Positions 13,600 to 34,623 are shown, numbered from the stretch's first letter. The stretch: DNA of 64,000 nt from Chloroflexota bacterium (GCA_026389845.1 JAPLHB010000170.1:41368-105367), one strand, 5' to 3'. Numbers and translations are program-made. The notes: a model not told the origin generated them from the letters alone.

Positions 13600-15205
<1,606 letters not shown>

Positions 15206-15209
<4 letters not shown>

Positions 15210-16250
15210 TCGCGATCCTCGATCTGGCGTTGACCGGCATTGCCGGCGCTCTTTGGTATCTCTGGCCCGCGTTGGGGCCCTGGCCGCTCCTGCTGATCGC
15301 GGCGGGGCGCCTGGCCCGCATTTTAACACCCGGTCACCGCGGATGGCAGCGCACCCGTTACGACCTGCCGCTGCTGCTCTTCGGCGCGACCGCAGCGTTC
15401 GGCGCGTGGCTGGCGTATGATCCGGCCGCCGGCTGGGGCAAATTCTGGGGCATCGTCGGCGGGCTGGCGCTTTATGACAGTCTGGCGCGCGGGCCGGAGG
15501 ATGTGCACATCGCCGGCCGGGCGTTCTCGCCCCAACGACTGATCTTCGCCCTGCTGCCCGCGGTCATCGCCCTCTACTTCCTGTTGACGACCGATTGGTC
15601 GCGCTGGATGGGCAAGCTGCCGTGGCTCGATCCGATCATGGCTTGGCTGGCCGCCTGGCAGCCCGATCTGCCGGGGCATCGGCTGCACCCCAACGTGGCC
15701 GGCGGGCTGATCGCCGCCTTGATCCCCTTGCAGGTGGCCGCGGTGCGAGGGCGGAGGATCGCAGGCCCGCTCGTCGGCCTCGCGGCGCTCGGTCTGCTGC
15801 TGACCGGCTCGCGCGGGGCCTGGCTGGCTCTGGGGGCGGCCAGCGCAGCCTGGGCGGTCTGGCGGGGGTGGATCCGCCGCTGGCCGCGCCAGGTTCGATG
15901 GACCGCGGCCGCGCTGCTGGCAGTGAGCGGAGTCGCCGCGGCAGTGATCGCGCTGGCGCTTGGCCCCGCCCTACTCCCCGGTGGTCGCCTGGAACTCTGG
16001 CGCAACAGCCTCGACCTGGCGCTGGACACCCCGTTCACCGGTCTCGGCCTGGGCGGCTTCCAGATGGCCTATTCCAGCTATGTGCTGATGCTCCACGTGG
16101 GCCACACGATCCACAGCCATAACCTGCTGCTGGACATCTGGCTGGAGCAGGGGCTGGTGGGGGCGGCGGCGTTCGGGTGGCTGCTAGTAGAGTCGGCAGT
16201 GGTCAGGGGTCAGGGGTCAGTCGTCAGTCGTCAGTTTTCAGTGGGGCTCG
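15206..16250 (+). CDS. O-antigen ligase/polymerase-like membrane protein (Wzy_C), N-terminal part up to a frame break
   Basis: It has multiple transmembrane helices and the motif GLGLGGF...HSHNLLLDIWLEQGLVGAAAFGW. After the repeat at 16199-16243 this frame becomes Arg/Gly-rich nonsense. Confidence 0.7.
16199..16243 (+). repeat. Heptamer tandem repeat (GGTCAGG/CGTCAGT) at the frame break in the O-antigen-ligase gene
   Basis: The units ggtcagg ggtcagg ggtcagt cgtcagt cgtcagt tttcagt are followed by a GGGG run (16243-16246). Confidence 0.85.
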
Positions 16251-16259: not shown

Positions 16260-16949
16260 ATGGCGCTGGGGGTGATCCTGTTGCACGGGCTGGTGGACGA
16301 TGCCTTTTACGGCAGCCGCGGGGTGCTGCTGCTGTTTGTCCCCTTTGCGCTGCTGGCGCGGGAGGAGCAGGAAAGGGGGAGACAGGGAGACAGGCAGAGA
16401 GGGAGAGGGGGAGCCTTGATCTCAGCCTCAGCCTTAGCCCTGCTCCTCGCCCTGCTGCCAGCCACGCGGGCGGTATTTCAGGCGAACCTGGCCGCGTTGG
16501 CGCAGACGCGGGCCGAGCTTTCGGTCTACCGCTGGCCGGCCTATCCGATCCAAGACGCGCTGCGGCGGCAGGCGCCCGGCAGCCCACCACCCGTGGACCT
16601 GGCCCCGGCGATCGCCCGTTACCGCACCGCGTTGGCGCTGGATCCCGGCAACGCGGCCGCCAATCGCCGCCTGGGGCAGATCGAGCTTTCGCTCGGGCAG
16701 TACGATGCTGCTCGCCGCCACCTGGAGGCCGCCTATGCCACGGCGCCGGGCCAGCGGGCCACGCGCCAACTGTTGGGCGAAACCTACGCCCTCGCCGGCG
16801 ACCCCGGCCGCGCCGCTGCCCTGTGGCGCGCCGTAGATCTGAGCCAGGGACAACTGGCCTTGCGCGAGTGGTGGTACGGCGCCATCGGCGAGACCGCCAA
16901 TCAGCAGCGCATCACGCGGGCCATCCGCCAACTGACAACCGATCACTGA
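16260..16949 (+). CDS. C-terminal part of the O-antigen-ligase-like protein (last transmembrane helices plus TPR domain), in a different frame
   Basis: ALGVILLHGLVDDAFYGSRGVLLLFVPFALL continues the Wzy_C topology. TPR-like ALALDPGNAAANRRLGQIELSLGQYDAA follows. This frame is open from 16191. Confidence 0.7.
   Translation: MALGVILLHGLVDDAFYGSRGVLLLFVPFALLAREEQERGRQGDRQRGRGGALISASALALLLALLPATRAVFQANLAALAQTRAELSVYRWPAYPIQDALRRQAPGSPPPVDLAPAIARYRTALALDPGNAAANRRLGQIELSLGQYDAARRHLEAAYATAPGQRATRQLLGETYALAGDPGRAAALWRAVDLSQGQLALREWWYGAIGETANQQRITRAIRQLTTDH
16361..16460 (+). repeat. Purine-rich then pyrimidine-rich simple repeat, in-frame
   Basis: ggaaagggggagacagggagacaggcagagagggagaggggg is followed by ccttgatctcagcctcagccttagccctgctcctcgccctg. 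It encodes EEQERGRQGDRQRGRGGALISASALALLLALL. Confidence 0.75.
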
Positions 16950-17821
16950 TGACTGACAACACCCTAGCCCCCAGCTCCCAACTCCCAATCCCCACCGTGG
17001 TGATCGAGCCGACCCGCGGCCTGGCCGCGCTGCAACTGCGCGCGGTGTGGGAGTATCGCGAGCTGCTCTTCTTCCTGGCCTGGCGCGACATCAAGGTGCG
17101 CTACAAGCAGACCGCGCTGGGAGTCGCGTGGATCGTCCTGCAGCCGCTCCTGAGCACGGTCATCTTCACGCTGATCTTCGGCGGGCTGCTCAAGGTGCCG
17201 TCGGAGGGCGCGCCCTATGCCGTCTTTGCTTTGGCCGCGCTGGCCCCGTGGCAGTATTTCGCCGGCAGCCTGAGCCGGGTGGGCGGCAGCCTGATCAACA
17301 GCGCCAACCTGATCACCAAGGTCTATTTCCCGCGGCTGATCATCCCGCTCTCGGGCGTGATCTCGACCCTGGTGGATTTCGCCATCGCCTGCGCCGTACT
17401 GGTCGTCCTGCTGATCTTCTACCGGATCCCGCTGACGATCAACGTCGTGTGGCTGCCGGCGTTCCTGCTCCTGGCGGTGACCACCGCGCTGGGCTTCGGG
17501 CTGTGGCTGGCCGCGCTCAACGTGCGCTTCCGCGACGTGAACTATCTGATCCCGTTCATGCTGCAAATCTGGATGTACGTCACACCCGTGGTCTACGGCA
17601 CGTCGCTGATCCCCGCGCGCTTCCGGCCGCTCCTGGCGCTGAATCCCATGACCGGCGTCGTCGAAGGCTTCCGCTGGGCGCTGCTGGGGACAGGAGTCAG
17701 CGGGCAGGGATCAGGGGACAGCCTGCTGACCGCGGTCTCGGTGGTCATCGCGCTGATCGTCCTGGCATCGGGGCTGGTCTTCTTCCGCAGCACCGAGCGG
17801 ACCTTCGCGGATGTGATTTGA
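16949..17821 (+). CDS. wzm: ABC-2-type polysaccharide export permease
   Basis: LRAVWEYRELLFFLAWRDIKVRYKQTALGVAWIVLQPLL is the ABC-2/Wzm-TagG signature, followed by six transmembrane segments. The start overlaps the upstream stop as TGATG. Confidence 0.85.
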   Translation: MTDNTLAPSSQLPIPTVVIEPTRGLAALQLRAVWEYRELLFFLAWRDIKVRYKQTALGVAWIVLQPLLSTVIFTLIFGGLLKVPSEGAPYAVFALAALAPWQYFAGSLSRVGGSLINSANLITKVYFPRLIIPLSGVISTLVDFAIACAVLVVLLIFYRIPLTINVVWLPAFLLLAVTTALGFGLWLAALNVRFRDVNYLIPFMLQIWMYVTPVVYGTSLIPARFRPLLALNPMTGVVEGFRWALLGTGVSGQGSGDSLLTAVSVVIALIVLASGLVFFRSTERTFADVI

Positions 17822-17844
17822 GGGTGGTCGCTGCCGAACGGCAT

Positions 17845-17873
17845 TTGACGCCAGGGCAGGCGCGGGGTAGAAT
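17845..17873 (+). promoter_or_regulatory. Sigma-70-type promoter (module P1, copy a)
   Basis: TTGACG (17845-17850), a 17-nt spacer, then TAGAAT (17868-17873). GGGAGGGG precedes the ATG at 17922. Confidence 0.65.
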
Positions 17874-17921
17874 GTGTGGGTCAGAATCGAGCATAGACGA
17901 ATGGCAGGGAGGGGTATCTGA

Positions 17922-18269
17922 ATGGGCGCCAATTTTGCTATCGCGGTCGAGCCGTTGGTTCGACGCCAGATCTTTGCCACCGAAGAACAGGCCGCACGCG
18001 AATTAGTGCGGGATTACATACTGCGCCAGATCGCGCCTTTGCAGCGGGAAGTAACCCGCTTTGAGCGCAGATATGGCATGCGTTTCGAGCGTTTCGGCGA
18101 GTATCTTCACGAACGCTCGCTGCTGTTGCAGACCAGCGAACTGGCGCCCCAGCAACGCCAGGCCCTCGGTCAGGCCATCATGCAGGAAGAGGATGCTTGG
18201 CTCGACTGGAAAGCAGCCCAAGAAATGCTGGAAAGCTGGCTGGGATTACGCCAAGAGGTAACGGGGTGA
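17922..18269 (+). CDS. Putative antitoxin-like small protein (partner of the DUF6516-like gene)
   Basis: This 115-aa helical protein (..FERRYGMRFERFGEYL...DAWLDWKAAQEMLE) is coupled to the next gene by a GTGA overlap. Confidence 0.5.
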   Translation: MGANFAIAVEPLVRRQIFATEEQAARELVRDYILRQIAPLQREVTRFERRYGMRFERFGEYLHERSLLLQTSELAPQQRQALGQAIMQEEDAWLDWKAAQEMLESWLGLRQEVTG

Positions 18270-18652
18270 CGTCTCTACCCTCTCTGCTCGGGGCCTTGAG
18301 CGCAACAATCCAGGCGCATTCCCTGTGCAAACGCGTCGCAGACATCGAGACTCGGGAATTCACAGCCAATCAATTTCTCTTCAAAATCAGAGCCGAATTT
18401 GCCAATAAGACGACCCTCCAGGTGCGTGTCTACTTCAACCGGGGCCACATTGACTACGCTTATCAGCTTTTCGCAGACACACCGCTGCTGCGCTGGGACA
18501 ACAAGGAAGAATTCCGTTCTATCGCGACCTACCCCCACCATCACCATGATGCGCAAGGCAACGTCCAACCCTCGCCGTTGCTTGGCGATCCCGTCTCCGA
18601 TATCCGGATGGTGCTGGCAGCCGTGTCGCAATTCCTGGCCACCAACAACTAA
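18266..18652 (+). CDS. DUF6516 (TumE-family)-like putative toxin
   Basis: The GTG at 18266 overlaps the upstream stop. The core LLRWDNKEEFRSIATYPHHHHD resembles the RwDN...PHHkH core remembered for DUF6516. Family assignment comes from memory only. Confidence 0.45.
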   Translation: MTSLPSLLGALSATIQAHSLCKRVADIETREFTANQFLFKIRAEFANKTTLQVRVYFNRGHIDYAYQLFADTPLLRWDNKEEFRSIATYPHHHHDAQGNVQPSPLLGDPVSDIRMVLAAVSQFLATNN

Positions 18653-18656
18653 AACT

Positions 18657-18975
18657 ATGCCCAACATCGCCATCCGCGTCGACCACCTGGGCAAGCTCTA
18701 CCACATCGGCCAGCTCCAGCAACGCCACGACACCCTGCGCGATGCGATTTCGGATTTCCGATTGCGAATTTCGGATTCTTTTCGCCGCTCCAATCCGCAA
18801 TCCACAATCCGCAATCCGAAGACCTCTGGGCTTTGCGCGACGTCTCCTTCGAGGTGCAGCGCGGCGAGGTGGTGGGCATCCCTTCGACTACGCTCAGGAC
18901 AGGCATCGGCCGCAACGGCGCGGGGAAGAGCACGCTGCTCAAGATCCTCTCCCGCATCACCGAGCCGATGGGCGC
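18657..18975 (+). pseudogene. wzt decoy a: codons 1-30 and the Walker A region of the ABC ATPase, interrupted by a simple repeat and a 24-nt insertion
   Basis: [30 protein letters not shown] plus [20 protein letters not shown][PSTTLRTG][23 protein letters not shown] parallels the real wzt at 25117. The copy is truncated after about codon 95. Confidence 0.8.
18747..18820 (+). repeat. Simple repeat with complementary arms (CGGATT)n / (AATCCGC)n
   Basis: atttcggatttccgattgcgaatttcggattc ... caatccgcaatccacaatccgcaatccgaag. Confidence 0.85.
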
Positions 18976-18992
18976 CTGCCGCGTGGTTGCTC

Positions 18993-19022
18993 TTGCCGAA
19001 TCGGCGTCTGGTAAGGTATAAT
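18993..19022 (+). promoter_or_regulatory. Candidate promoter of vapBC
   Basis: TTGCCG (18993-18998), an 18-nt spacer, then TATAAT (19017-19022). AGGAG lies at 19045-19049. Confidence 0.45.
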
Positions 19023-19056
19023 CACCCCAGCAATAATCTGGCATAGGAGACCCGAA

Positions 19057-19320
19057 ATGTTACATGAGCAAGAGTTAGAAGTTCGGCAAGGTGTCTGGAT
19101 TGACAAAGATTGGCTCAAAAGCGCCGGTTTGGGCGGCCGGCTAAACGTGCTGGTGCAACCCGGTGAGATTCGTATTTTGCCGGCGAAGGGATCGCCCAAG
19201 CAGATCGGCACTACCTTAGGCTGGGACGTCTTCAGGTCTTTGGGAGACGCCGCCGCGCCCGGTCAACTGCCCGACGCAGCCGTAGAGCATGACCGCTACC
19301 TGTACGGGAAGCAGCTATGA
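19057..19320 (+). CDS. vapB: AbrB/SpoVT-type antitoxin
   Basis: GVWIDKDWLKSAGLGGRLNVLVQPGEIRILP is a swapped-hairpin AbrB-like motif. It overlaps the PIN gene by 4 nt. Confidence 0.75.
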   Translation: MLHEQELEVRQGVWIDKDWLKSAGLGGRLNVLVQPGEIRILPAKGSPKQIGTTLGWDVFRSLGDAAAPGQLPDAAVEHDRYLYGKQL

Positions 19321-19733
19321 GGCAGGTCTTTGTTGATACCAGCGCCTGGGATGCGCTGGCCGACAGTCGAGACGCGCGGCATGACCCGGCGCTGGTATTC
19401 AGGCAAGAGATCGCCGGCCGCGCGCAGTTGGTTGTTACAGACTACATTCTAGACGAACTGTACACACTGTTGCTGCTCAATATCGGCTACCAGAGCACCG
19501 TCAATTTCAAGGGCAAGCTCGACACCCTTGCCAAAGAGGGCGTAATGTCTGTGGTGTGGGTTACCGAAGCCATCGCCCAGGAAGCCTGGGAGGTTTTCAA
19601 GCGGTTTAACGTGGACAAAAGTTGGTCATTCACTGACTGTGTGTCTTACGTGGTGATGAAACGGCGTGGTATCACGGAAGCGTTCACTTTTGACCACCAC
19701 TTTGAGCAAATGGGCTTCGGTAAACTCCCGTAA
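19317..19733 (+). CDS. vapC: PIN-domain toxin
   Basis: MRQVFVDTSAW...DYILDELYTLL...FTDCVSYVVM...AFTFDHHF carries the four conserved acidic positions of a PIN domain. Confidence 0.85.
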   Translation: MRQVFVDTSAWDALADSRDARHDPALVFRQEIAGRAQLVVTDYILDELYTLLLLNIGYQSTVNFKGKLDTLAKEGVMSVVWVTEAIAQEAWEVFKRFNVDKSWSFTDCVSYVVMKRRGITEAFTFDHHFEQMGFGKLP

Positions 19734-19789
19734 GGTCCCAAATCGAAGACGGTCCTCCACTCTCTGCGTTCCGTCTTGAAGTTCACCCT

Positions 19790-19879
19790 ATGTTCAACAG
19801 CGCCATCCGCGTCGACCACCTGAGCAAGCTCTACCACATCGGCAAGCTCCAGATCGCCTACGACTGTGGCGAAGAGTAA
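19790..19879 (+). pseudogene. wzt decoy b (first ~20 codons only)
   Basis: MFNSAIRVDHLSKLYHIGKLQIAYDCGEE*. The nucleotide match to 25126-25175 and 18666-18715 is visible by eye. Confidence 0.75.
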
Positions 19880-19891
19880 GGAGTATTGAGT

Positions 19892-20125
19892 ATGCAGACC
19901 GCAATCGGTTCATCTGCGTTTCAGAAGACCATCGAGGGCGTCGAAAGACTACCGATTGACGACCAACTGCTGCTGGTCGAGATCATCAAACAACGTTTGA
20001 TTCAGCATCGCCGCGCCGAACTGACGACGGTGATCGCAGAAGCCCGTGCAGCCTACCGGACCGGCAATGTGCGACGAGGCACTCCAGACGACCTGCTGAA
20101 GGAGTTGGAGGAGTTGGACGAGTGA
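19892..20125 (+). CDS. Putative type II antitoxin
   Basis: TAAGGAG lies 8 nt upstream of the ATG at 19892. This small acidic-tailed protein overlaps the downstream RelE-like gene by 4 nt. Confidence 0.6.
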   Translation: MQTAIGSSAFQKTIEGVERLPIDDQLLLVEIIKQRLIQHRRAELTTVIAEARAAYRTGNVRRGTPDDLLKELEELDE

Positions 20126-20406
20126 GAGCGCTGATCTGGAGTCCGAATTTCACTCGTCTGTTGCGCCGGAAAGTCCGCCAAAACCCGCTGCTGCGTCAGT
20201 CAGTCGGGAACACTCTTCGCCAGCTTGCGGATGACCCCTTCCACCCTTCGTTACACAGCCATAAGTTGAAGGGCAGCCTGGCAGGGGTATGGGCGTGTAC
20301 GGTTGACTACGACAACCGGATTATCTTCGAGTTTGTGGAGGATCCCGGCTCCGCGGAGAACGCGATCCATCTCCTCGCTTTGGGCACTCACGATGAAGTC
20401 TACTGA
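20122..20406 (+). CDS. RelE/ParE-superfamily toxin (YafQ/RelE-like)
   Basis: DPFHPSLHSHKLKGSLAGVWACTVDYDNRIIFEF...LLALGTHDEVY is the typical RelE/YafQ core pattern. Confidence 0.75.
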   Translation: MRALIWSPNFTRLLRRKVRQNPLLRQSVGNTLRQLADDPFHPSLHSHKLKGSLAGVWACTVDYDNRIIFEFVEDPGSAENAIHLLALGTHDEVY

Positions 20407-20417
20407 TCTCTAAAACC

Positions 20418-20510
20418 ATGCCCAACATCGCCCTCCGCGTCGACCACCTGAGCAAGCTCTACCACATCGGCCAGCTCCAGCAACGCCACGACACCCTGCG
20501 CGATGCGCTG
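20418..20510 (+). pseudogene. wzt decoy c (codons 1-30), running into a simple repeat
   Basis: [31 protein letters not shown]. It shares even the taaaac(c/t)ATG context with decoy a. Confidence 0.8.
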
Positions 20511-20615
20511 TCATCAGTTTTCAGCCGTCAGTCATCAGTTCTTGGTTCTCAGTCGTCAGTTCTCAGTCGTCAGTCACCCTCGCCCACTGACCACCGACCA
20601 CTGATAACTGACTGC
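20511..20615 (+). repeat. Heptamer repeat block R9 (GTCAGTC family followed by an ACTGACC arm)
   Basis: tcatcagttttcagccgtcagtcatcagttcttggttctcagtcgtcagt...caccctcgcccactgaccaccgaccactgataactgac. A near copy lies at 21726-21820. Confidence 0.85.
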
Positions 20616-20669
20616 TCATAACTCGCTCCGCCGCGGTCGTTGCCCCGACTGGGCGCTGCCGGACGGCAT

Positions 20670-20698
20670 TTGACGCCAGGGCAGGCGCAGGGTACAAT
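20670..20698 (+). promoter_or_regulatory. Sigma-70-type promoter (module P1, copy b)
   Basis: TTGACG (20670-20675), a 17-nt spacer, then TACAAT (20693-20698). It is part of a ~144-bp duplicate of 17830-17973. Confidence 0.65.
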
Positions 20699-20746
20699 GT
20701 GTGGGCCAGAATCAAGCATGGACAAATGGCAGGGAGAAATATCTGA

Positions 20747-20809
20747 ATGGGCGCCAATTTTGCTACCGCTGTCGAGCCGTTGGTTCGACGCCAGATTTTT
20801 GTGATATAG
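20747..20809 (+). pseudogene. Truncated copy of the first 18 codons of the antitoxin-like gene 17922..18269
   Basis: MGANFATAVEPLVRRQIFVI* compares with MGANFAIAVEPLVRRQIFATEE... Confidence 0.8.
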
Positions 20810-20831
20810 ACCCCCGACGGGAGTTGCACGC

Positions 20832-21218
20832 ATGACCACTGCACTCGATCTGACCCCAGAGGACTTGAAGCGCTATCGAGACGCAGCACGTCGGCGCGCA
20901 GCGCCCCTGGCGCTGGCGCCGACGGAGGCCGCTGTACGGGACGAATTGCTGACGCGGGTCCGCCGAGCAGCCGCTGTGCTGACCACACGCTATGGCGCGA
21001 AACGCGTCACCTTGTTCGGCTCGCTGGCGCACGAGGCCTGGTACGCGGCTGACTCGGATGTTGATCTTGCGGTGGAAGGGATGCCCAGCGAAGACTACTG
21101 GCGGGCGTGGCGAGCCGTCGAAGAGATCATCGGCGATCGGTCAGTGGATTTGGTCGAGGTGGAAACGGCAAGAGAATCCCTGCGCAGCGCCATTGAACGG
21201 CGCGGGGTGATGTTATGA
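20832..21218 (+). CDS. Minimal nucleotidyltransferase (MNT/MntA-like antitoxin)
   Basis: The motif is LFGSLAHEAWYAADSDVDLAV (GS...D.D). It overlaps the partner gene by 4 nt. Confidence 0.8.
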   Translation: MTTALDLTPEDLKRYRDAARRRAAPLALAPTEAAVRDELLTRVRRAAAVLTTRYGAKRVTLFGSLAHEAWYAADSDVDLAVEGMPSEDYWRAWRAVEEIIGDRSVDLVEVETARESLRSAIERRGVML

Positions 21219-21706
21219 CTGATCCGGAAAGAGAACTTGCGGAGCGCATCCGCGGCGAGACCGTAGACCTCGACCGTTCTGTGGCGCGGGCATCTGCGGC
21301 ATGGGAACGCGGAGGGAAGGCCGGCACCGAGCAGGACTACTATCTGGATGCGGTGGCCCTGAATTTGCACAGTTTCTACTCAGGAATCGAGCGTCTGTTC
21401 GAATTGACGGCGCGGCACATTGATCACACCCTGCCGGACGGCGAAGCCTGGCATCGCGTGCTCGTCACTCGAATGGCGCAGGAAGTGCCGGACGTTCGCC
21501 CGGCGGTCATCAGTCCAGATGTCGCGGCGACCCTGGACGAATATCGCCGCTTCCGCCACCTGGTGCGCAACGTCTATGCAACCAATCTCGTGCCGGCCAA
21601 AATGCAGGGCTTAGTTGAGCGCCTGGCGACTCTGTGGCCCCGGCTGCGCGTCGAACTGATCGCCTTCGCAGGATTTCTGGAACAGATATCGTCAGACGCA
21701 ACCTGA
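21215..21706 (+). CDS. HEPN-like (HepT-like) partner of the MNT
   Basis: It has a helical bundle with LDEYRRFRHLVRNVYATNL. The position directly after an MNT gene is typical of type VII TA pairs. No clean Rx4-6H motif is present. Confidence 0.6.
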   Translation: MTDPERELAERIRGETVDLDRSVARASAAWERGGKAGTEQDYYLDAVALNLHSFYSGIERLFELTARHIDHTLPDGEAWHRVLVTRMAQEVPDVRPAVISPDVAATLDEYRRFRHLVRNVYATNLVPAKMQGLVERLATLWPRLRVELIAFAGFLEQISSDAT

Positions 21707-21725
21707 GGGCAGCTATTCCTTCTGT

Positions 21726-21820
21726 AGTCATCGGTTTTCAGCCGTCAGTCATCAGTTCCTGGTTCTCGGTCGTCAGTCACCCTCGCCCATTGACCACCGA
21801 CCACTGAAAACTGACAACTC
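21726..21820 (+). repeat. Heptamer repeat block R10, direct repeat of R9
   Basis: agtcatcggttttcagccgtcagtcatcagttcctggttctcggtcgtcagtcaccctcgcccattgaccaccgaccactgaaaactgac. Confidence 0.85.
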
Positions 21821-21823
21821 GTT

Positions 21824-21858
21824 CCTCTCCCGCATCACCGAGCCGACCAGCGGCCGGC
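21824..21858 (+). pseudogene. wzt decoy d (codons ~88-98 only)
   Basis: cctctcccgcatcaccgagccgaccagcggccgg compares with the real wzt ctctcccgcatcaccgagccgacgggcggccgc. Confidence 0.65.
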
Positions 21859-21883
21859 GATTCACCGACGCTTTGACAATCAC

Positions 21884-23521
21884 ATGAGAATCACTCGTGA
21901 GCACTTAGTCCTCATTGCCATCCTGGTGCTGGCCTTGGCTCTGCGGCTGTGGAGCATTGATTTCGGGTTGCCCTACGCCTACCACATTGATGAGCGCAGC
22001 TACGTGATCGGTGCGCTCAACCTGGGCCAGGGCGAGATCAACGGCTATCCCCAGCAGGTCGGGCTGGTCAACGTGCTCATCGGGGAGTATGTCGGCTATT
22101 ACCTGGTGGGGCGGTTGGCCGGGCTGTTCGCCTCCGCCCAGGACTTCGCCCGCGCCTACTACACCGATCCCACCGTATTCTATCTACTGGGCCGCCTAAC
22201 TAGCGCGGTGCTAGGTGTCGTGAGCTGTTGGGCGGTCTACCTGCTGGGCAAAGAGCTGCGCAATCGCCTGGTGGGGCTGGCCGCGGCCCTGCTGGTGGCG
22301 GTCAATTTCCTGCACGTGCGCGAGTCGCACTTCACAACCCCCGACGTGGCGCAAGCGCTGGGCTTCACCATGGTTGCCCTGCTCTGCTTGAAGACGCTGA
22401 AGTCCGGCCGCTTGCGCACTCTTTACATGGCCAGCTTCCTGGGCGGCGTCGTAATCGCCTGGAAATGGGCGTCTTTCCCGCTGATCCTGCCGTTGATCTT
22501 CGTGGCCTGGCAGGCAGGCGCGGGCCGGTCGTTCCTGGCGGTCTTCAAGCGTTGGCTGATCTGCGGGCTGCTGGTCTTGGTGGGCTTTGCAGTGTTCTCG
22601 CCGCAGCTTCTACTCTTCCCGGCGCCCTACATCGAGTGGGCGAAGCGAGATTACATCACGGGCAGTGTGGGCGGTTACGGCGGGTTCCTGATCGACACGG
22701 TGCCCGGCTGGCTGTTCTATCTCAAAGCCTCCTGGATCGGCTTAGGCGTGTTGGGGTTGGCCCTGGCGCTGGCCGGGCTAATCCTGTGGACCTACCGGCT
22801 GCTCTGGCTGCGAAACCGACAAATTGCCGTGCCGCTGCTGTTGTTCGTCGGCTATTTTCTGCTGATGGCCAGCTCCCGGCGCTACTTCGTGCGCTACGCC
22901 GTGCCTATGGCGCCTTTTCTTGCCCTGGCCGTAGCCGATGCGGTCAACTGGGCCAGCGAGCGGTGGTCGGCCGGCAGCCGGCGGGGCGTGGCCGCGGCGC
23001 TGGTCGCCCTGGTATTGTTGGCGGCCGTGCAGCCAACCATGGCTGCGGCGCGGGCCAATATCCTGTGGGCGAGAGAAGACACGCGCACCCTAGCCAAACG
23101 CTGGATCGAGCAGAACATTCCAGAAGGCGCGAAAATCGCCACTGACTGGATGGTGCACGGCGTCCCACTGGCTACGTCCGACGTCCCCTCACCCTATTCT
23201 AGTCGTACCTATCAGGTGACCGAAGTCAACGGCCTGGGATTGTCGGACCATCCGGTCGAGTTCTATCGGGCAGAAGGGTTTGATTACCTGATCACCACCA
23301 GCTACATCAGCAACCTGCACCTGGTGGATCGCCAGCGAGACGAAGGGCGCGACGCATTCTACCGGTCGCTGGACTCCACCTTCGACCTGGTTCAAGAGTT
23401 TCGACCTTACACCGGAAACGTCGAGCCACCTTTCATGTTCGATCATATCTACGGCCCCTTGACCGCGTTGTGGCAATTCGGCCTGCCAGGGCCGACGTTG
23501 AAGATCTACAGGGTCAGATGA
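21884..23521 (+). CDS. GT-C-fold membrane glycosyltransferase (ArnT/PMT-like)
   Basis: It has about 12 transmembrane helices, a first-loop acidic motif YHIDERSY, and a large C-terminal soluble domain. Confidence 0.7.
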   Translation: MRITREHLVLIAILVLALALRLWSIDFGLPYAYHIDERSYVIGALNLGQGEINGYPQQVGLVNVLIGEYVGYYLVGRLAGLFASAQDFARAYYTDPTVFYLLGRLTSAVLGVVSCWAVYLLGKELRNRLVGLAAALLVAVNFLHVRESHFTTPDVAQALGFTMVALLCLKTLKSGRLRTLYMASFLGGVVIAWKWASFPLILPLIFVAWQAGAGRSFLAVFKRWLICGLLVLVGFAVFSPQLLLFPAPYIEWAKRDYITGSVGGYGGFLIDTVPGWLFYLKASWIGLGVLGLALALAGLILWTYRLLWLRNRQIAVPLLLFVGYFLLMASSRRYFVRYAVPMAPFLALAVADAVNWASERWSAGSRRGVAAALVALVLLAAVQPTMAAARANILWAREDTRTLAKRWIEQNIPEGAKIATDWMVHGVPLATSDVPSPYSSRTYQVTEVNGLGLSDHPVEFYRAEGFDYLITTSYISNLHLVDRQRDEGRDAFYRSLDSTFDLVQEFRPYTGNVEPPFMFDHIYGPLTALWQFGLPGPTLKIYRVR

Positions 23522-25068
23522 ATAGCCATAATTTGAGCAAGCCCTCGACTACGATGGTTCTTGCAGCAGTCATAGCCTTTGTGACAGTCGCTGTGCGACT
23601 GGGCTATGGCCCACGCACCGTGGACGATGCATTCATTACCTTCCGTTATGCCCGCAACATCGCTGAGGGCGTCGGTTTTGTATTCAATCCTGGTGAAAGG
23701 ATACTGGGCACCACAACTCCGCTGTTTGCTTTGCTGCTGGCAGCTTTCTACCGGATCGGGTCCCAACTGCCCTGGAGTGCTCTGTTGATCGCCAGTCTGG
23801 CTGATGCCGGCACCGCTGTGCTCATCTTTCTGGTGATCAGCAGGGTAAGCCGTAGCACGCTCGCGGCACTGGTTGCCGCTCTATTGTTCTCCGTGTCAGC
23901 AGGCAGCATCCGTTTCACAGGTGGTGGCATGGAGACGGGTTTGTTTGTGTTCTTGGTGATGTTGGCAACATGGCTTTTCATTGACGAACGCTATTCACTA
24001 GCTGCAGTCAGCGCAGCACTTGCCACATTGACGCGGCCCGAAGGCATCATTGTTCTCTGCGTGTTGGGCAGCCTTTTTCTTGTTCGATTCCGCAAGCTGC
24101 CTTGGTTCATAATAGGCATCAGCCTGGCCATCGGACTGCCATGGGTTGTCTTTGCCTTTGCCTATTTTGGTTCTCCGCTGCCCTACTCGATGGTGGCCAA
24201 AGGAAGCACCTACGCATTTCCACCATTGACGGCTCTAAAGAGTTTGCTGGGGTATCTGGTCGCATATACGTTGCCCACCGATGATCTTGAGTTGGGACGC
24301 CTGTTCAAATATGGCTTTGCGATTCTAGTACTATTCCTCGGTGCACTAACTGCCATTGTGTACGGTAAACGGCGGGGGGAGGATTATTCCGTTCTGTGGG
24401 CATTTCCTGCGGTTTATCTAGGCGTCTATACGATCGCCAATCCCCCCGTTTGGGAGTGGTATGCTCTGCCGCTGGTGCCATTCACGGTTTGCCTCTTAGT
24501 ATCTGGTGGTGTAGAAGTCTGGCGAACAGCCGTTACACGGATGAGGATAGGGAACTTGCATGCACTGGGATTTCTCAAGTTTCTGGTGTTGCCAGCGATA
24601 TGCCTCTTGGGACTCGTTCAAATCCAACAGATTCTACGCATCGACGTAAGGGTTGGCCGAGAGTTGACCTACGCCGATATCGCACATAAGCTTCAGCCCT
24701 TACTGCAGCACGAAGATAACCTGGCTGCGCCGGAGATCGGCGCCCTGGGCTATCTTTTGCCGAGCGCCTATATGCTGGATACGCAAGGGCTTGTTTCGCC
24801 AGCTGCCGTGCCCTATCGCCAGGATGTATTGCGCACACTTTCGCTCGATGTGGATTTCCAAGCATTGTGGTTTGCGAGTGGCGCGATACCACCGAGCCTC
24901 ATTGCTGAGCAGAAACCTCAGTATGTTGTCTCACCTGAGAAGCTGGCTGCCCTCCTGGTCCGAGATGAGGTGTTCTCTGAAGCCTACCGTCTGATTCTCA
25001 CCGAGCCTAGTGACTTTATGGGTGGTTCAGGCATCCTGGTTTGGCAAAGGGTCGATGGTGGAAATTGA
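23518..25068 (+). CDS. Polytopic membrane protein, GT-C-like putative glycosyltransferase
   Basis: The ATG at 23518 overlaps the upstream stop as ATGA. The first-loop motif is DDAFITFRYARN. It has many transmembrane helices and visibly lower G+C than the flanks. Confidence 0.55.
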   Translation: MNSHNLSKPSTTMVLAAVIAFVTVAVRLGYGPRTVDDAFITFRYARNIAEGVGFVFNPGERILGTTTPLFALLLAAFYRIGSQLPWSALLIASLADAGTAVLIFLVISRVSRSTLAALVAALLFSVSAGSIRFTGGGMETGLFVFLVMLATWLFIDERYSLAAVSAALATLTRPEGIIVLCVLGSLFLVRFRKLPWFIIGISLAIGLPWVVFAFAYFGSPLPYSMVAKGSTYAFPPLTALKSLLGYLVAYTLPTDDLELGRLFKYGFAILVLFLGALTAIVYGKRRGEDYSVLWAFPAVYLGVYTIANPPVWEWYALPLVPFTVCLLVSGGVEVWRTAVTRMRIGNLHALGFLKFLVLPAICLLGLVQIQQILRIDVRVGRELTYADIAHKLQPLLQHEDNLAAPEIGALGYLLPSAYMLDTQGLVSPAAVPYRQDVLRTLSLDVDFQALWFASGAIPPSLIAEQKPQYVVSPEKLAALLVRDEVFSEAYRLILTEPSDFMGGSGILVWQRVDGGN

Positions 25069-25116
25069 GGGAGTAGCTGCCACAGGTATAACTTGTTCAA
25101 CGCTAACGAGCGTACT

Positions 25117-26364
25117 ATGACCAACAATATCGCCATCCGCGTCGAAAACCTGAGCAAGCTCTATACCATCGGTGCTCGCCAACAGCGCCCTGATACTCTG
25201 CGCGATGTCCTGAGCGGCCTGTTCCGGCGCAACGGCAAGCACGATTATGAGACCGATCTCTGGGCCCTGCGCGACGTCTCCTTCGAGGTGCAGCGTGGGG
25301 AGGTCGTTGGCATTATCGGCCGCAACGGCGCGGGCAAGTCCACGCTTCTTAAGATCCTCTCCCGCATCACCGAGCCGACGGGCGGCCGCGCCGAGATCCA
25401 CGGACGAGTCGCCAGCCTGCTGGAGGTGGGTACCGGCTTCCACCCCGAGCTGACCGGCCGCGAGAACGTCTACCTAAACGGCGCGATCCTGGGCATGCGG
25501 CGAACCGAGATCAACCGACGCTTCGACGAGATCGTCGCCTTTGCCGAGATCGAGCGCTTCCTGGATACCCCGGTGAAGCGCTATTCCAGCGGCATGTACG
25601 TGCGTCTGGCGTTTGCCGTGGCTGCGCACCTGGAGCCGGAGATCCTGCTGGTGGACGAGGTACTGGCGGTGGGGGACGCCGTCTTCCAGAAAAAGGCCCT
25701 CGGAAAAATGGCCGGCGTTGTAAATGAAGGGAGGACGGTTCTCTTCGTGAGCCACAACATGGGGGCCATCTCGAGCTTGACACAACGAGCAATCCTTCTT
25801 GACTCAGGTAGTCTTGTTGTTGATGCTGCCACCAGCATATCGGTATCTTTGTACTTGTCTTCCACCTATGAAAACAATGCAGAGTGGCACAGCGATTTAC
25901 AGACCGAGCATCCTATCCAGATTCGTTGTATCAAACTTCTCAATGATAGAGGCCAATTGTCTACGGAATTCGATGTAGCGAAGGGATTGCTGATCCAGGT
26001 AGAATATGTGGTTCGTGAACCGGTGCGCAGCGCAGTAATCGCTCTCAATCTGCATGCTGCTGACGGAGCACACGTCGTGAGTCTTGAGGATATTGATGGA
26101 TCTCCCGATCTGCTGATGCAACGGTCACCAGGTATCTTTCGTACCTGCGTGAGGCTTCCAGGGAATTGGCTAAATAGTGGCACCTATCTTGTACGAGCTG
26201 GCTCGGGCGTTCCGAGATTTGCGATCTTCGATAATATCGAGGCGCTTCAGTTTTCACTAATGGAAACTGGTGAGACCACAAAACGAGGGCATAGAAGCGG
26301 CTATTTGCTGCCGATGCTCTCATGGGAAACAGAAATCATTCTAGATGGGAAAGGTGTAACTTGA
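25117..26364 (+). CDS. wzt: Polysaccharide-export ABC transporter ATP-binding protein with C-terminal carbohydrate-binding-type domain
   Basis: It has Walker [10 protein letters not shown], signature YSSGM, Walker B LLVDEVL, and a ~170-aa C-terminal extension as in Wzt/TagH. The start was chosen by analogy to the decoys (MTNNIAIRV). Confidence 0.85.
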   Translation: MTNNIAIRVENLSKLYTIGARQQRPDTLRDVLSGLFRRNGKHDYETDLWALRDVSFEVQRGEVVGIIGRNGAGKSTLLKILSRITEPTGGRAEIHGRVASLLEVGTGFHPELTGRENVYLNGAILGMRRTEINRRFDEIVAFAEIERFLDTPVKRYSSGMYVRLAFAVAAHLEPEILLVDEVLAVGDAVFQKKALGKMAGVVNEGRTVLFVSHNMGAISSLTQRAILLDSGSLVVDAATSISVSLYLSSTYENNAEWHSDLQTEHPIQIRCIKLLNDRGQLSTEFDVAKGLLIQVEYVVREPVRSAVIALNLHAADGAHVVSLEDIDGSPDLLMQRSPGIFRTCVRLPGNWLNSGTYLVRAGSGVPRFAIFDNIEALQFSLMETGETTKRGHRSGYLLPMLSWETEIILDGKGVT

Positions 26365-26369
26365 CAGCT

Positions 26370-27563
26370 ATGACCTGTGCCATCATCCCCGCGCGCGGCG
26401 GCTCCAAAGGCATCCCTCGCAAGAATGTACGCTTATTGGCGGGGAAGCCGCTGATTGCGCATACCATTGAGCACGCTCGCCAGTCTCGCTTCGTGCAGCG
26501 GGTGATGGTGTCCACCGATGATCCCGAAATCGCTACTGTCTCGAAGCAATATGGTGCCGAAGTAGTCTGGCGGCCGGCAGAGATTAGCGGCGACACGGCC
26601 TCGTCGGAATCAGCGCTGTTGCATGCCCTGGAACACCTGGGTTCGACCGAGGGCTATGAGCCGGACCTGCTCGTCTTTTTGCAGTGTACGGCGCCCCTGA
26701 CCCTGCCGGAGGATATCGACGGCACAGTACAGGCTCTGCTGGATAAAGGCGCCGATTCCGCTCTATCTGCCACGCCGTTCCAGTGCTTCCTTTGGCATCA
26801 GGATGAGAATGGCGATTCGGTAGGTATTAATCACGACAAACGGGTCCGGCTTCTGCGCCAGCAGCGGGAGCCGGAGTACCGGGAGACTGGGGCCGTCTTC
26901 GCGATGCGCACCAAGGGCTTCTTGCAAGCGAAGCATCGCTTCTTCGGTAAGACTGCTATGTATATGATGCCGCCGGAGCGGTGTCTGGATATTGACGACC
27001 TGGTGGACTTCCAGATCGCTGAGATGCTGCTGCGGGAACGGCAGCGGCAACAGAGAGCCAACTTGCTACCAGGCTGCGTGGCTGCTCTGGCGCTGGATTT
27101 CGACGGCGTCTTCACGGACAATAAAGTTATCGTCTCTCAAGATGGACAGGAAGCGGTTGTCTGCGATCGCAGTGACGGTTGGGGGCTGGCCCAACTGAAT
27201 AAACTGGGATTGCCCATTCTGGTGCTTTCCACCGAGCAGAACCCTGTGGTGCAGGCGCGGTGTAACAAGCTAGGCATTCCGTGTCGGCATGGTCTGCAGG
27301 ACAAACTTGCCGTTCTCAACGAGTGGCTGGACGTGCGTGGTCTGGACCGTTCGCAGGTGGTCTATGTCGGTAACGACGTCAACGACCTGGCGTGCATGAT
27401 GGCCGTCGGCTGCGGCGTAGCTGTTGCCGATGCCTCTCCCCAGGTGCTTTCGGCCGCTCGCATTGTACTGACGGCCAATGGCGGTCAAGGCGCCATTCGG
27501 GAATTGACCGACCTCATTGCGGAGAGATCAAACGAGGAGCGCATCCATAGCCAGGCCAGTTGA
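26370..27563 (+). CDS. Fusion of an acylneuraminate/Kdo-type cytidylyltransferase and a KdsC-like HAD phosphatase
   Basis: The N-terminus is CAIIPARGGSKGIPRKNVRLLAGKPLIAHTI (CTP_transf_3). The C-terminus is LDFDGVFTDNKV...GNDVNDLACM...ADA (HAD, KdsC type). Confidence 0.8.
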   Translation: MTCAIIPARGGSKGIPRKNVRLLAGKPLIAHTIEHARQSRFVQRVMVSTDDPEIATVSKQYGAEVVWRPAEISGDTASSESALLHALEHLGSTEGYEPDLLVFLQCTAPLTLPEDIDGTVQALLDKGADSALSATPFQCFLWHQDENGDSVGINHDKRVRLLRQQREPEYRETGAVFAMRTKGFLQAKHRFFGKTAMYMMPPERCLDIDDLVDFQIAEMLLRERQRQQRANLLPGCVAALALDFDGVFTDNKVIVSQDGQEAVVCDRSDGWGLAQLNKLGLPILVLSTEQNPVVQARCNKLGIPCRHGLQDKLAVLNEWLDVRGLDRSQVVYVGNDVNDLACMMAVGCGVAVADASPQVLSAARIVLTANGGQGAIRELTDLIAERSNEERIHSQAS

Positions 27564-27752
27564 GATCGGCGGTCGTCCGGCCGGGCTTGGCCACCCGACT
27601 TGCATCATGGCCGAAAGGCGACGTCGGTGGAGCCGCGCGGGTTTGCTCGGCTGGTGAGGGATATTCGGGTAAACGAAGCAGCGCTGGGGGATGGAGTGAA
27701 ACGGGTATACATCAGCGAGTTCCGACACGCGACAAACTAAGGAGTACACGCA

Positions 27753-28628
27753 ATGACCTGGCGAAGGGTAGCAAAGCGAATCGCATATTGGACAATGCCC
27801 CCTGGATTTCAAGACCTGGCACGCAGGCGCCTTTCTGGGAGATCTGCTGTCACAAAGGAGCCGCTTTCAGAGATCGAACAATGTCTGTTGAGCAGAAATC
27901 TCGAACTTCATAACCGGCATCTAGGTGAACGGTGCTTTATTCTGGCAACTGGACCATCAATCAAGACGCAGGACTTGAAACTGCTCAAGACTGAAACTTG
28001 TATTGCAGTTAGCAACTTCCTTGTGCACCCCGATTATGCCGTGATTCGACCCCAATACTACTGCCTTGCCCCATATCATCCGCCAATTACCGAAGATAGT
28101 TGGCAAGCCTGGATGACAGAGATAGCTGGCAAGACGCTGAATGCAACAATGTTTTTTGGTCTCGCTGACCGCGAGCGTAACGAAATCAATGGCCGTTTTG
28201 CTGGTCGTCAAGTGCATTACCTCAAGTTCGGTGGCGCGCTTGATGATCTCGTCAGGGACGGTGTCGATCTTTCAATGGCCGTTCCTGGACCTCAGTCTGT
28301 CACGATCATGGCGCTGCTCATAGCGATATATATGGGATTCAAGAACATCTATTTGCTTGGTTGTGATCATGACTGGATACTACATGTCGGTACAAGTACT
28401 CACTTTTACAATGAAAGCCAACACGCTTTGAATCGTAGTGGATATAGCGAATGGCATAAACCCGAACTCGGTAGCGAGTTTGACAGTCTCTCCAATCTTT
28501 GGAGGCAATACAAGACGATTCGTGTGCTTGCGACTGGCCTCGGCATAAGTATTTCCAATGCCACTGGCGGCGGCATTCTTGATGTTTTTCCTCGTGTACG
28601 CTTTGAGAATCTGATGGTAAAACTATGA
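27753..28628 (+). CDS. DUF115/MptE-like protein (Maf-type putative nonulosonic-acid/sugar transferase)
   Basis: CFILATGPSIK...IAVSNF...LLGCDHDW resembles the DUF115 core. TAAGGAG lies upstream. G+C is low. Family recognition is moderate. Confidence 0.45.
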   Translation: MTWRRVAKRIAYWTMPPGFQDLARRRLSGRSAVTKEPLSEIEQCLLSRNLELHNRHLGERCFILATGPSIKTQDLKLLKTETCIAVSNFLVHPDYAVIRPQYYCLAPYHPPITEDSWQAWMTEIAGKTLNATMFFGLADRERNEINGRFAGRQVHYLKFGGALDDLVRDGVDLSMAVPGPQSVTIMALLIAIYMGFKNIYLLGCDHDWILHVGTSTHFYNESQHALNRSGYSEWHKPELGSEFDSLSNLWRQYKTIRVLATGLGISISNATGGGILDVFPRVRFENLMVKL

Positions 28629-29497
28629 CAGCCAGGCAAGTAGTCAAGCTATTTGTTCCTCCTGTCCTTGTGGATTGCTACCGCGTTTTACGCAGCAGAA
28701 TCAAGAAAACTGGTCCATCAAACAACTACCAAGCCAAAGATGGTCTTCATCTGGAAGGCGACTACTCTTCCTGGCGCGCAGCCATGGCCGACAGCACGGG
28801 CTACGATGCCGAGATTATCCTTGCGAAGACCACGGCTGCGCTGCTCAAAATCAAAAACGGTGCGGCGGTCTACGAGCGGGATTCTGTCCTCTTCGATGAG
28901 ATTCAGTATGCCTGGCCGCTTTTGGCTGGCTTGATGTGGGTGGCAGCTCGCTCCGGCGGCAGCCTCAACGTGCTTGATTTCGGCGGCTCGCTGGGCAGCA
29001 CCTATTTCCAGAACCGCGCCTTCCTGGCCGGGCTCCGTGAGTTCAGGTGGAACATCGTGGAGCAAGCTCGCCAAGTCGAGACCGGCAAGTGCTGGTTTGA
29101 GGACGAGCATCTTAAGTTCTACGCCTCCGTCGAAGACTGCCTGGCCGAGACGCAACCTCAGGTGATTCTTCTGAGCGGCGTTCTCCAATACCTGCCAGAG
29201 CCCCATGCAATCCTGGATGAGCTGTTAGGCCTGACCTGCGATTGTCTGATCATTGACCGCACGCCGTTTTGGAATGGGCCGATGGATCGGCTCTGTGTGC
29301 AGCACGTGCCAGCGGAGATTTATTCGGCCAGCTACCCCAGTTGGATTTTTCCGATACAGCGGTTCCGTTCAGTCTTGAACGAAAACTGGGAGGTTGTGGC
29401 CGAATTTGACAGTTTGGATAAACTGGCGGCACCTGTGGAGACTATCTGGAAAGGGATGATCGCAACCAGGCAGAAAGAGATTTCGGATCATGGGTAA
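28625..29497 (+). CDS. Methyltransferase, TIGR04325-like
   Basis: LNVLDFGGSLGSTYFQNR...VILLSGVLQYLPEP matches the pattern recalled for this polysaccharide-cluster methyltransferase family. Confidence 0.6.
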   Translation: MTARQVVKLFVPPVLVDCYRVLRSRIKKTGPSNNYQAKDGLHLEGDYSSWRAAMADSTGYDAEIILAKTTAALLKIKNGAAVYERDSVLFDEIQYAWPLLAGLMWVAARSGGSLNVLDFGGSLGSTYFQNRAFLAGLREFRWNIVEQARQVETGKCWFEDEHLKFYASVEDCLAETQPQVILLSGVLQYLPEPHAILDELLGLTCDCLIIDRTPFWNGPMDRLCVQHVPAEIYSASYPSWIFPIQRFRSVLNENWEVVAEFDSLDKLAAPVETIWKGMIATRQKEISDHG

Positions 29498-31176: not shown

Positions 31177-31195
31177 CTGAGAGGTATAGGTATTT

Positions 31196-31978: not shown

Positions 31979-31985
31979 AAATTGC

Positions 31986-34610: not shown

Positions 34611-34623
34611 TCGGCAAAGTGCA

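Follow-up and report, generated by a model that had tools for sequence, protein, structure and literature searches.

The genes wzm and wzt of a predicted O-polysaccharide ABC exporter, normally neighbors, are held apart in a 64,000-nucleotide stretch of DNA from a Chloroflexota bacterium (GCA_026389845.1, JAPLHB010000170.1:41368-105367; henceforth the window, from whose first letter positions are counted) by an array of four toxin-antitoxin (TA) cassettes interleaved with truncated copies of wzt. This is a real and recurrent genome architecture, with the same layout present in at least 10 related Anaerolineae/Chloroflexota assemblies. Our reading, to which we give slightly better than even odds (a probability of roughly 0.55), is that the array was built up by successive additive recombination events, each with its anchor in the conserved 5' end of wzt, combined with TA addiction.

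Organization of the wzm-wzt interval

The left border of the array is wzm (16949-17821, + strand; Pfam ABC2_membrane, 1.3e-18), which encodes the ABC-2 permease. To its right lies the intact wzt (25117-26364, + strand; ABC_tran, 2.8e-23), encoding an ABC ATPase with a C-terminal domain that matches Wzt_C below threshold (1.5e-4; 22.2 bits against a cut-off of 30.4). The ABC2_membrane and ABC_tran matches together point to a Wzm/Wzt O-polysaccharide exporter. An earlier note on this DNA had placed wzm and the full-length wzt 7.3 kb apart and listed what lies between them, and on both counts the open reading frames (ORFs) and Pfam agree. The spacing is 7,295 nt and all contents of the gap are on the + strand: four TA pairs (A1/TumE, VapBC, an antitoxin with a RelE-like toxin identified at sub-threshold level, and MNT/HepT, the MNT/HEPN pair of that note), pieces of wzt, and two GT-C glycosyltransferase genes. 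The wzt pieces comprise three 5' copies of 63-90 nt, a Walker-A fragment and a 36-nt internal fragment, and every ORF of the array falls to a TA or GT-C function. The uninterrupted junction that was to be sought in relatives is the common arrangement, since wzm and wzt adjoin (gap of -3 to ~100 nt) in most of 160 related loci, whose wzm products are 62-84% identical in amino acids to that of the window.

The four cassettes are small and co-directional, the two genes of each overlapping by 4 nt, and by gene adjacency, overlap and toxin domain (sub-threshold for the RelE/YafQ-like toxin) they are predicted type II-like TA pairs. The first consists of A1 (17922-18269), a presumed antitoxin by virtue of its pairing with TumE, and the TumE (DUF6516) toxin itself (18266-18652; Pfam PF20126, 2.7e-11), of which 289 homologues were retrieved. 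A1 matches no family in Pfam or NCBIfam, and is always paired with TumE in the related loci L161, L162, L166, L171 and L174, at 75-80% amino acid identity. TumE was first described only in 2023 (PMC10584680). The vapBC cassette, including its promoter (TTGCCG-18-TATAAT, 18993-19022), extends from 18993 to 19733 and encodes VapC (19317-19733; PIN, 1.7e-12) and its partner VapB (19057-19320). In the third cassette A3 (19892-20125) is assigned by gene pairing as the antitoxin of a RelE/YafQ-like toxin (20122-20406), whose matches to YafQ (9e-6) and RelE_StbE (3.5e-5) are both sub-threshold. The fourth joins MNT (20832-21218; Polbeta, 1.1e-7) to HepT (21215-21706; HepT-like_2, 1.1e-34). PADLOC returned weak candidate-family matches only. 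A promoter scan places strong sigma-70-type promoters at 17845, 18993 and 20670, ahead of three of the four cassettes, and detects none belonging to the A3/RelE-like cassette itself.

The truncated copies of wzt, which we call decoys a to d, differ in extent. Decoy a (18657-18979) is a pseudogene in which codons 1-30 (18657-18746) lead into a heptamer array (18746-18818) that replaces the variable loop, and then into the Walker-A region as far as SRITEPMG; this last region matches wzt at 52 of 59 and 67 of 75 positions and contains a frameshift. Decoy b (19790-19879) is a 29-codon ORF with wzt homology over its first 63 nt only, and its stop codon overlaps the Shine-Dalgarno sequence of A3. 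Decoy c (20418-20507) again corresponds to codons 1-30, and is identical to a at 88 of 90 nt. The sequence that a and c have in common opens with CTAAAAC, located 8 nt before the ATG, in agreement with the earlier observation that these two decoys share the context of their start codon. The a-b and b-c pairs are 92% identical over the first 63 nt, whereas the nucleotide identity of the decoys to the real wzt is 74-76%. Decoy d (21823-21858) is an internal fragment, LSRITEPTSGR, matching wzt 25355-25390 at 32 of 36 positions. Similar fragments ending within ~30 nt of that point occur in L001 and L081, and the internal fragments near SRITEP stop at +13, +13, +16 and +31 nt in different copies. 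That the decoys are genuine is borne out by a 44-nt core with three matches in the window against none in 100 shuffles, and by identities above background. The proposal that each cassette is bounded by a copy of the wzt 5' end holds for three of the four; MNT/HepT runs instead into a heptamer array and then into the internal fragment d.

Within the Walker A motif of decoy a lies a 24-nt element, CCCTTCGACTACGCTCAGGACAGG (18880-18903), coding for FDYAQDR. A variant of it, GCTCAGGACAGGCCCTTCGACTGC, forms a tandem array of ~10 copies in a ugd decoy of L174 (10734-10997), and related units (…TCGCTTAGGGCGGGC…) occupy identical sites in several wzt decoys of L009, L010 and L019; L162 ~6420-6465 is also listed for this family. 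The element and its variants look like a family resembling miniature inverted-repeat transposable elements (MITEs) that is able to insert in frame.

Independent contigs across the array

Support for the assembly comes from independent Logan contigs of three sequencing runs, found through exact-protein look-ups of TumE, VapC and HepT; the corresponding look-ups of wzt, wzm and RelE gave no match, presumably owing to other start codons chosen by the gene callers. The source samples are those of runs SRR20698638, SRR20698639 and ERR15302166. Four short-read contigs are 100% identical to the window, including cassette-to-decoy junctions. L167 (17083-18720) runs from wzm through TumE into decoy a, L168 (18935-19835) from the Walker-A fragment at the end of decoy a through vapBC into decoy b, and L169 (20452-25461) from decoy c through MNT/HepT, decoy d and the GT-C genes into wzt; L170 covers 20453-21852. 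The only link lacking a contig of its own is that from RelE to decoy c. L167, L169 and L170 break within the wzt 5' repeat, in which 56 nt are exactly the same in a and c, as is to be expected of de Bruijn assembly at a real repeat. Such an exact repeat is also where a chimera might form or strain variants collapse, but that the array arose as an artefact of this kind is extremely improbable: the four contigs cross from unique cassette DNA into the flanking decoys, and the order vapBC-decoy-RelE-decoy recurs in L019, a chromosome-level assembly. Perfect identity in three runs, at unique segments and junctions alike, therefore establishes the tandem structure.

Related arrays differ in cassette content

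Related loci were fetched by scanning genome and metagenome collections with wzm; the best wzm matches were 80% and 84% identical, and the window's own species was not returned. The source genome is GC-rich and its nearest relatives are metagenome-assembled genomes (MAGs) labelled Anaerolineae, Anaerolineales and Caldilineales. TA or defense cassettes interleaved with wzt 5' copies are found in L001, L002, L005, L009, L019, L081, L161, L162-165, L166 and L171-173, each cassette running tightly into a wzt start. VapBC, RelE and TumE cassettes are held in common with the window, while HicAB, Phd/PIN, UPF0175/DUF3368, DUF4160/DUF2442 and Schlafen-ATPase cassettes are not. All homologues of the window TumE at 67-79% identity lie within such arrays. 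Different content at the same site, for which the earlier note had called, is thus evident (for example in L019, L002, L009 and L166), and the relatives do not show a single ancient duplication without variation.

Two of these loci stand particularly close to the window. L019 (CP059258) begins with wzm and a pair of epimerase genes, after which come a 3' fragment of wzm, a first wzt start and a wzt fragment fused to vapBC. Next are another wzt start, an antitoxin/RelE pair, positions 1-580 of wzt and Phd/PIN_3; HicA then stands between two further wzt starts, and the locus closes with a decayed Phd/PIN pair and the full wzt. Its wzt fragment-vapBC segment is 74% identical in nucleotides to window 18946-19733 and has the same junction. 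L166 closely parallels the window, with a wzt fragment-vapBC segment (79% nucleotide identity), two HicAB pairs, A1/TumE, a 150-residue wzt fragment, sugar-modification genes and the full wzt, ahead of which a PMT_2 GT-C gene occupies the same place as that of the window. Homologues of the RelE cassette are present in L001 and L019, and an A3-like antitoxin in L166.

Elsewhere the content diverges further. In L002 three HicAB pairs, a UPF0175/DUF3368 pair and an unannotated pair are each followed by a wzt start; the three HicAB pairs are divergent, which favors independent acquisitions. L009 contains UPF0175/DUF3368, DUF4160/DUF2442 and HicAB, L001 a truncated hicB followed by the RelE cassette, a GxxExxY gene and HicAB, and L005 one cassette. 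In L081, which has the closest wzm (84%), the slots between wzt starts are taken by the unannotated pair known from L002 and by a Schlafen/AlbA_2-HATPase gene, and in L171-173 an array with four ABC-ATPase starts precedes wzm. Inserts other than TA genes are also accompanied by fragments: in L019 the wzm 3' fragment follows the two inserted epimerase genes, and in L084 a wzm 5' decoy stands ahead of an inserted GT-C gene and epimerase gene. Nor is the architecture specific to wzt. The array of L174, a locus from a 196-kb contig, exceeds 20 kb and holds 12 or more TA pairs (TumE, HepT/MNT, HicAB, DUF433/DUF5615, PIN_3 and DUF4160/DUF2442 among them), set between 5' fragments of genes that resemble ugd (a dehydrogenase), fcl (an epimerase) and gmd (a dehydratase).

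Several features of these loci were seen in passing. The unannotated two-gene unit (155 and 126 residues; L002 9734-10569, L081 5377-6235) sits in a cassette slot between wzt starts, its second gene overlapping the wzt ATG by 4 nt; it has no match in Pfam, NCBIfam or PADLOC and is a candidate new TA or defense pair. The L174 array extends past both ends of the fetched locus, and L174 1-20393 contains a segmental duplication of ~1.5 kb (1-1500 against 13900-15500, 83-100% identical). In L162 a single array contains two ABC2_membrane (wzm-like) genes, 2957-3808 and 7736-8581, separated by wzt fragments and by genes of TA or Schlafen type, which implies that duplication of whole genes, or the stacking of two exporter loci, takes place as well. 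Outside the Chloroflexota some wzm-wzt gaps hold small selfish-looking genes and no decoys (L032 2025-2736, L047 1873-2238, L050 1517-1870, L058 10946-11224). Among them, the gap of a Heliomicrobium MAG contains a TumE-like pair encoded on the other strand, and those of Binatia and delta-proteobacterial MAGs have ORFs that by eye resemble four-helix-bundle proteins of the 23S rRNA intervening-sequence type.

Junctions and a proposed route of array growth

The two sides of the cassettes behave differently. On the right, 16 of the 28 wzt 5' copies in 11 loci begin no more than 17 nt after the stop codon of the upstream ORF, and 8 overlap that stop (ATGA-type). This spacing is that of translationally coupled operon genes, and is the same where an ordinary gene precedes a functional wzt. 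The segment from promoter through A1 and TumE to the wzt start aligns as a single block, at 74-79% nucleotide identity, in the window, L161, L162 and L166. On the left, by contrast, the TumE unit of the window adjoins the stop codon of wzm, while its counterparts elsewhere adjoin wzt fragments ending at about residues 60, 201 and 215. In the window the RelE cassette comes after decoy b (at wzt position 63), in L001 it comes after a truncated hicB, and the related A3-like antitoxin of L166 comes after a longer decoy. Decoys themselves end at wzt positions of approximately 46, 63, 90, 190, 273 and 580, with no constant crossover point. Right junctions are therefore conserved and tight while left contexts differ, which is the pattern expected of homology-facilitated illegitimate recombination (HFIR).

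The tight right junctions bear on whether the array might be a passive graveyard, in which the wzt fragments are relics of serial replacement of wzt or O-antigen alleles and the TA genes landed later and independently. The lower GC content of the gene cluster from ~23 kb (0.52-0.60, compared with 0.65-0.70 upstream), suggestive of a replaced glycan cluster, and the fragments left by non-TA inserts in L019 and L084 are in keeping with such an origin. Random landing is nevertheless not expected to set a toxin stop codon within 17 nt of the wzt ATG as often as is observed (16 of 28 copies, with overlap in 8), nor does it predict that a TA pair and a wzt 5' segment would be conserved as a single unit across lineages, and we regard this explanation as improbable.

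A recombinase acting in trans on the first ~60-90 nt of wzt, after the manner of an integron or island integrase, would account for the 44-nt core common to three window decoys, for the sequence shared by a and c starting at the same CTAAAAC 8 nt before the ATG, and for the compactness and common orientation of the cassettes. However, the core encodes the conserved N-terminus MxDIAIRVxxLSKLY in a GC-rich, codon-biased genome, and because of this its conservation needs no function at the DNA level. Three of the four cassettes have their own promoter, the ends of the decoys are inconstant, and the L174 decoys derive from three other genes. No integrase was found among the array ORFs or the flanking ORFs tested (a subset of the ORFs of the 64-kb window), and the array ORFs likewise included no transposase. 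An inverted-repeat search found no attC-type palindromes shared at the cassette ends, where the junctions consist of wzt fragments or heptamer arrays. The earlier statement that no integrase, attC-like element or transposase lies in or next to the array accordingly stands for the array itself, but not fully for its surroundings: a weak IS701-like (IS701/IS4) transposase ORF of 455 residues (29772-31139, - strand; NCBIfam 3.3e-9, sub-threshold; no Pfam match), the one mobile-element gene seen, lies 3.4 kb beyond the end of wzt. Given the varying decoy ends, the lack of a recombinase or att site and the decoys of other genes, a site-specific, integron-like mechanism is very unlikely, more so than the graveyard. 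Of the original proposal of repeated, sequence-directed, integron-like capture, what survives is recurrent capture, since cassettes differ among relatives; a fixed site or a dedicated recombinase behind it is not supported. The footprint fits generic homology-anchored recombination with TA addiction better than it fits a dedicated recombinase.

Cassettes move between the arrays of different genomes: L002 and L009 share UPF0175/DUF3368 and HicAB cassettes at 87-89.5% nucleotide identity while their wzm genes are 71% identical. Such movement might take the form of homology-armed circular cassettes, a RecA-dependent 'integron without an integrase'. Here, recombination between two wzt 5' copies would excise a circle of one TA cassette and one wzt 5' segment, and the circle (or a linear fragment taken up and closed via its terminal direct repeats) would re-enter any wzt by a single crossover, so that each cassette would have a fixed left wzt arm and a right wzt copy running from position 1. 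The vapBC cassette does have the same left arm, a wzt fragment ending at ~273, in the window, L019 and L166; a junction between a wzt fragment and hicB is common to L001 and L002 (88%); gains and losses occur in the middle of arrays and not just beside the functional wzt (L002 against L009); cassettes are more alike between genomes than the core gene wzm; and no integrase is needed. On the other hand, the left contexts of the TumE and RelE cassettes vary by genome, no circular or permuted contig was seen, and vertical descent can account for the shared junctions. The present data do not separate this model from a linear, one-sided one, and we hold circular exchange to be possible though rather doubtful.

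On our preferred reading of additive, homology-anchored growth, the unit is a TA pair, with or without a promoter, followed within a few nucleotides by the wzt ATG, which implies that the pair was once the immediate upstream neighbor of a functioning wzt, whether in a donor or in this lineage itself. A TA pair next to a conserved glycan gene would be transferred or copied along with the start of that gene. The right end of the incoming DNA would pair homologously within the wzt 5'/nucleotide-binding-domain sequence, and its left end would join illegitimately in or upstream of the resident wzt, as in HFIR; alternatively, a circularised unit might integrate by single crossover. Either way, the newcomer would supply a new complete 5' end and the resident 5' end would be pushed upstream as a truncated decoy. 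As a rule, such direct repeats and partial duplications recombine with one another and are lost. Here they would persist because the TA pair between them would make deletion lethal: its loss would lead to post-segregational killing, and the array would ratchet upward, which would account for the particular association of decoys with TA cassettes. Decoys may subsequently be eroded by frameshifts, by small deletions and by the insertion of heptamers or MITEs, with gene conversion keeping copies in the same genome similar. The choice of locus may reflect the frequent exchange of glycan loci, with crossovers in a few conserved genes (wzm, wzt, gmd, fcl and ugd). What the sequences show is the anatomy of the arrays, their recurrence, the turnover of cassettes, the contrast between right and left junctions and the lack of specificity for wzt; we infer both the route of recombination and the ratchet. 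Retro-insertion from mRNA was also considered and is ruled out, as the units include -35 and -10 promoter boxes.

Several points weigh against this scheme. No recombination intermediate, empty site or strain polymorphism was found in the collections searched, from which the species is absent. The likeness to HFIR extends to the junction pattern. The junction between wzt ~273 and the vapBC promoter, common to the window, L019 (74% nucleotide identity) and L166 (79%), fits vertical inheritance or a circular unit with a fixed arm equally well. The cassettes are bounded very tightly on both sides, by a -35 box or Shine-Dalgarno sequence to the left and by the stop codon of the toxin gene to the right, and a different, precise mechanism would also yield such limits. 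Decoys within one genome are 98% (window), 95% (L019) and 90-93% (L009) identical, and all three wzt copies of L009 carry the same in-frame MITE-like insertions, similarity that points to gene conversion or local copying. Since copies in the same genome are some 92-98% alike, against 67-79% for orthologues of the window cassettes between genomes, gene conversion is needed, or else local duplication in place of donor-derived copies. Finally, the ratchet presupposes TA activity that is predicted for these pairs.

Promoter modules and heptamer arrays

A promoter module had been described ahead of the TumE pair, and it is indeed present (17825-17976, + strand), consisting of a promoter (TTGACG-17-TAGAAT, 17845-17873; scan score 10/12) that is kept in L161, L162 and L166, a leader, and the first ~18 codons of A1. 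It is not the only one, however: a second copy, 91% identical, is found at 20650-20801 (+ strand; TTGACG-17-TACAAT, 20670-20698). This copy holds a truncated A1 leader ORF (20747-20808), so that a 5' 'decoy' of A1 now stands ahead of MNT/HepT. The first 18 A1 codons include an imperfect palindrome or hairpin, GTCGAGCCGTTGGTTCGAC, kept in both copies of the module (17945-17965 and 20770-20790). It may be an operator or attenuator, and if so MNT/HepT could be under A1/TumE-type control. A mobile promoter common to the TumE module and the hicBA genes of L001 was also considered, but the match (TTGACGCCAGG...TAGAAT) is too short to conclude.

The segment containing the second module copy and MNT/HepT is flanked on each side by a heptamer (CAGTNNT-type) array of ~110-130 nt, the left copy at 20509-20640 and the right at 21723-21830 (both + strand), which align with 98 of 135 positions identical. 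Folding of these arrays gives weak hairpins only (z -0.6 to -1.9), no better than shuffled sequence and not convincing as terminators or attC-like sites, and an Rfam scan of 16-27 kb yielded just two sub-threshold, chance snoRNA-like matches, on a heptamer array. Further heptanucleotide arrays, with 7-, 14- and 21-nt periodicity, are scattered across the window at 13555-13588, 14152-14217, 16183-16244, 17684-17729, 49383-49534, 49657-49728, 54391-54430 and 55561-55676. Several are in frame within coding sequences, including a radical-SAM gene and, as GQGSGDS, near the C-terminus of wzm. Heptamers also fill the variable loop that follows codon 30 of Wzt, and do so even where the gene appears functional (L005 12673).

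Relation to known systems

The nearest described analogue would appear to be the orphan cdiA-CT/cdiI and rhs-CT/rhsI modules of contact-dependent inhibition (CDI) and Rhs loci, in which new modules enter the main gene and push the old tip downstream, each displaced orphan retaining a piece of conserved sequence (PMC4927057, PMC3967940). Those arrays, like the ones described here, are tandem and co-oriented toxin/antidote modules, each with a fragment of the conserved part of the main gene, and are read as a fossil record of acquisitions that, one after another, pushed the resident end aside; retention is favored by the antidote, and the repeats permit later recombination. The present arrays are unlike them in being mirrored, with cassettes upstream and 5' fragments of an unrelated, housekeeping-type transporter gene. 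Their cargo consists of predicted intracellular type II-like TA pairs that are unrelated to wzt and are not its tips, and they lack intervening transposase or integrase genes.

Chromosomal integron cassette arrays are stabilized by TA cassettes (PMC11023631). The resemblance to these lies in a stack of compact, co-oriented cassettes at one site, in turnover between relatives and in the protection expected of TA cargo. Yet every defining integron feature tested is missing here. The arrays lack intI, attI and attC, and their repeats consist of pieces of genes that vary in length; a promoter of its own accompanies most of the cassettes (three of four in the window), and the repeated gene changes between genomes. 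Szekeres and colleagues (2007) are said to have reported the stabilizing effect of TA cassettes on chromosomal integron arrays.

HFIR has reportedly been observed in laboratory transformation of Acinetobacter and Streptococcus, by de Vries and Wackernagel in 2002 and by Prudhomme et al. in 2002, and its signature is a microhomology of 3-10 nt at the illegitimate joint. It shares with the present arrays one conserved homologous anchor, a variable non-homologous joint opposite, and additive integration of foreign DNA; to our knowledge it has not been seen to build long ordered arrays. Islands that regenerate the end of their target, such as those in tRNA and tmRNA genes and phage 21 and e14 in icd, use a tyrosine integrase and a fixed crossover site, usually at the 3' end. 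There, too, the element brings a copy of the target end, and tandem accretion leaves partial copies at junctions, whereas here there is no integrase, break points vary and 5' ends are duplicated. Defense/TA hotspots flanked by core genes and the minimal mobile elements of Neisseria similarly have variable content between conserved genes and homologous exchange; they swap by double crossover, without stacked partial copies of the flanking genes. In the literature we found no description of TA arrays interleaved with the starts of wzt or other glycan genes in Chloroflexota.

More tentatively, and with less confidence than in additive growth itself, we raise the rather doubtful possibility that the arrays constitute a 'homology integron' of an Anaerolineae clade, in which TA or defense cassettes would carry the 5' end of the downstream gene as a homology arm, excise as circles, re-enter by host recombination and be held by addiction, giving arrays of 5 to more than 20 kb that are shuffled between genomes. 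If the growth proposed here for the arrays is correct, cassette arrays with turnover can arise without a dedicated recombinase, it being enough to have anchors in conserved genes, one-sided or single-crossover recombination, and addictive cargo that blocks loss of the repeats. It would also explain the pile-up of TA genes at particular loci and would provide a readable 'fossil record' of recombination in the surface-glycan loci of uncultured Chloroflexota. Unannotated pairs in cassette slots, such as L002 9734-10569 and its L081 homologue, would become candidate TA or defense systems, and the truncated ABC_tran or epimerase 'genes' called in such arrays would be a source of misannotation.

Neighboring genes and base composition

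Between decoy d and wzt lie the two glycosyltransferase genes of the array, GT-C1 (21884-23521, + strand; PMT_2, 6.5e-12) and GT-C2 (23470-25068, + strand; a weak NCBIfam arabinofuranosyltransferase match only). A small ORF at 11007-11351, 6.5 kb upstream of the array and among ORFs without a family, has an HTH_17 domain of excisionase/MerR type (3.1e-13), and no partner integrase was seen with it. GC content is 0.65-0.70 upstream and 0.48-0.60 over ~23000-42700, a stretch that spans GT-C2, wzt and a downstream glycosyltransferase cluster. This drop from ~23 kb onward suggests that the glycan cluster, and perhaps the functional wzt too, came from a donor of lower GC content. The GC-rich exception within the stretch is kb 30-31 (0.655), which holds the IS701-like ORF.

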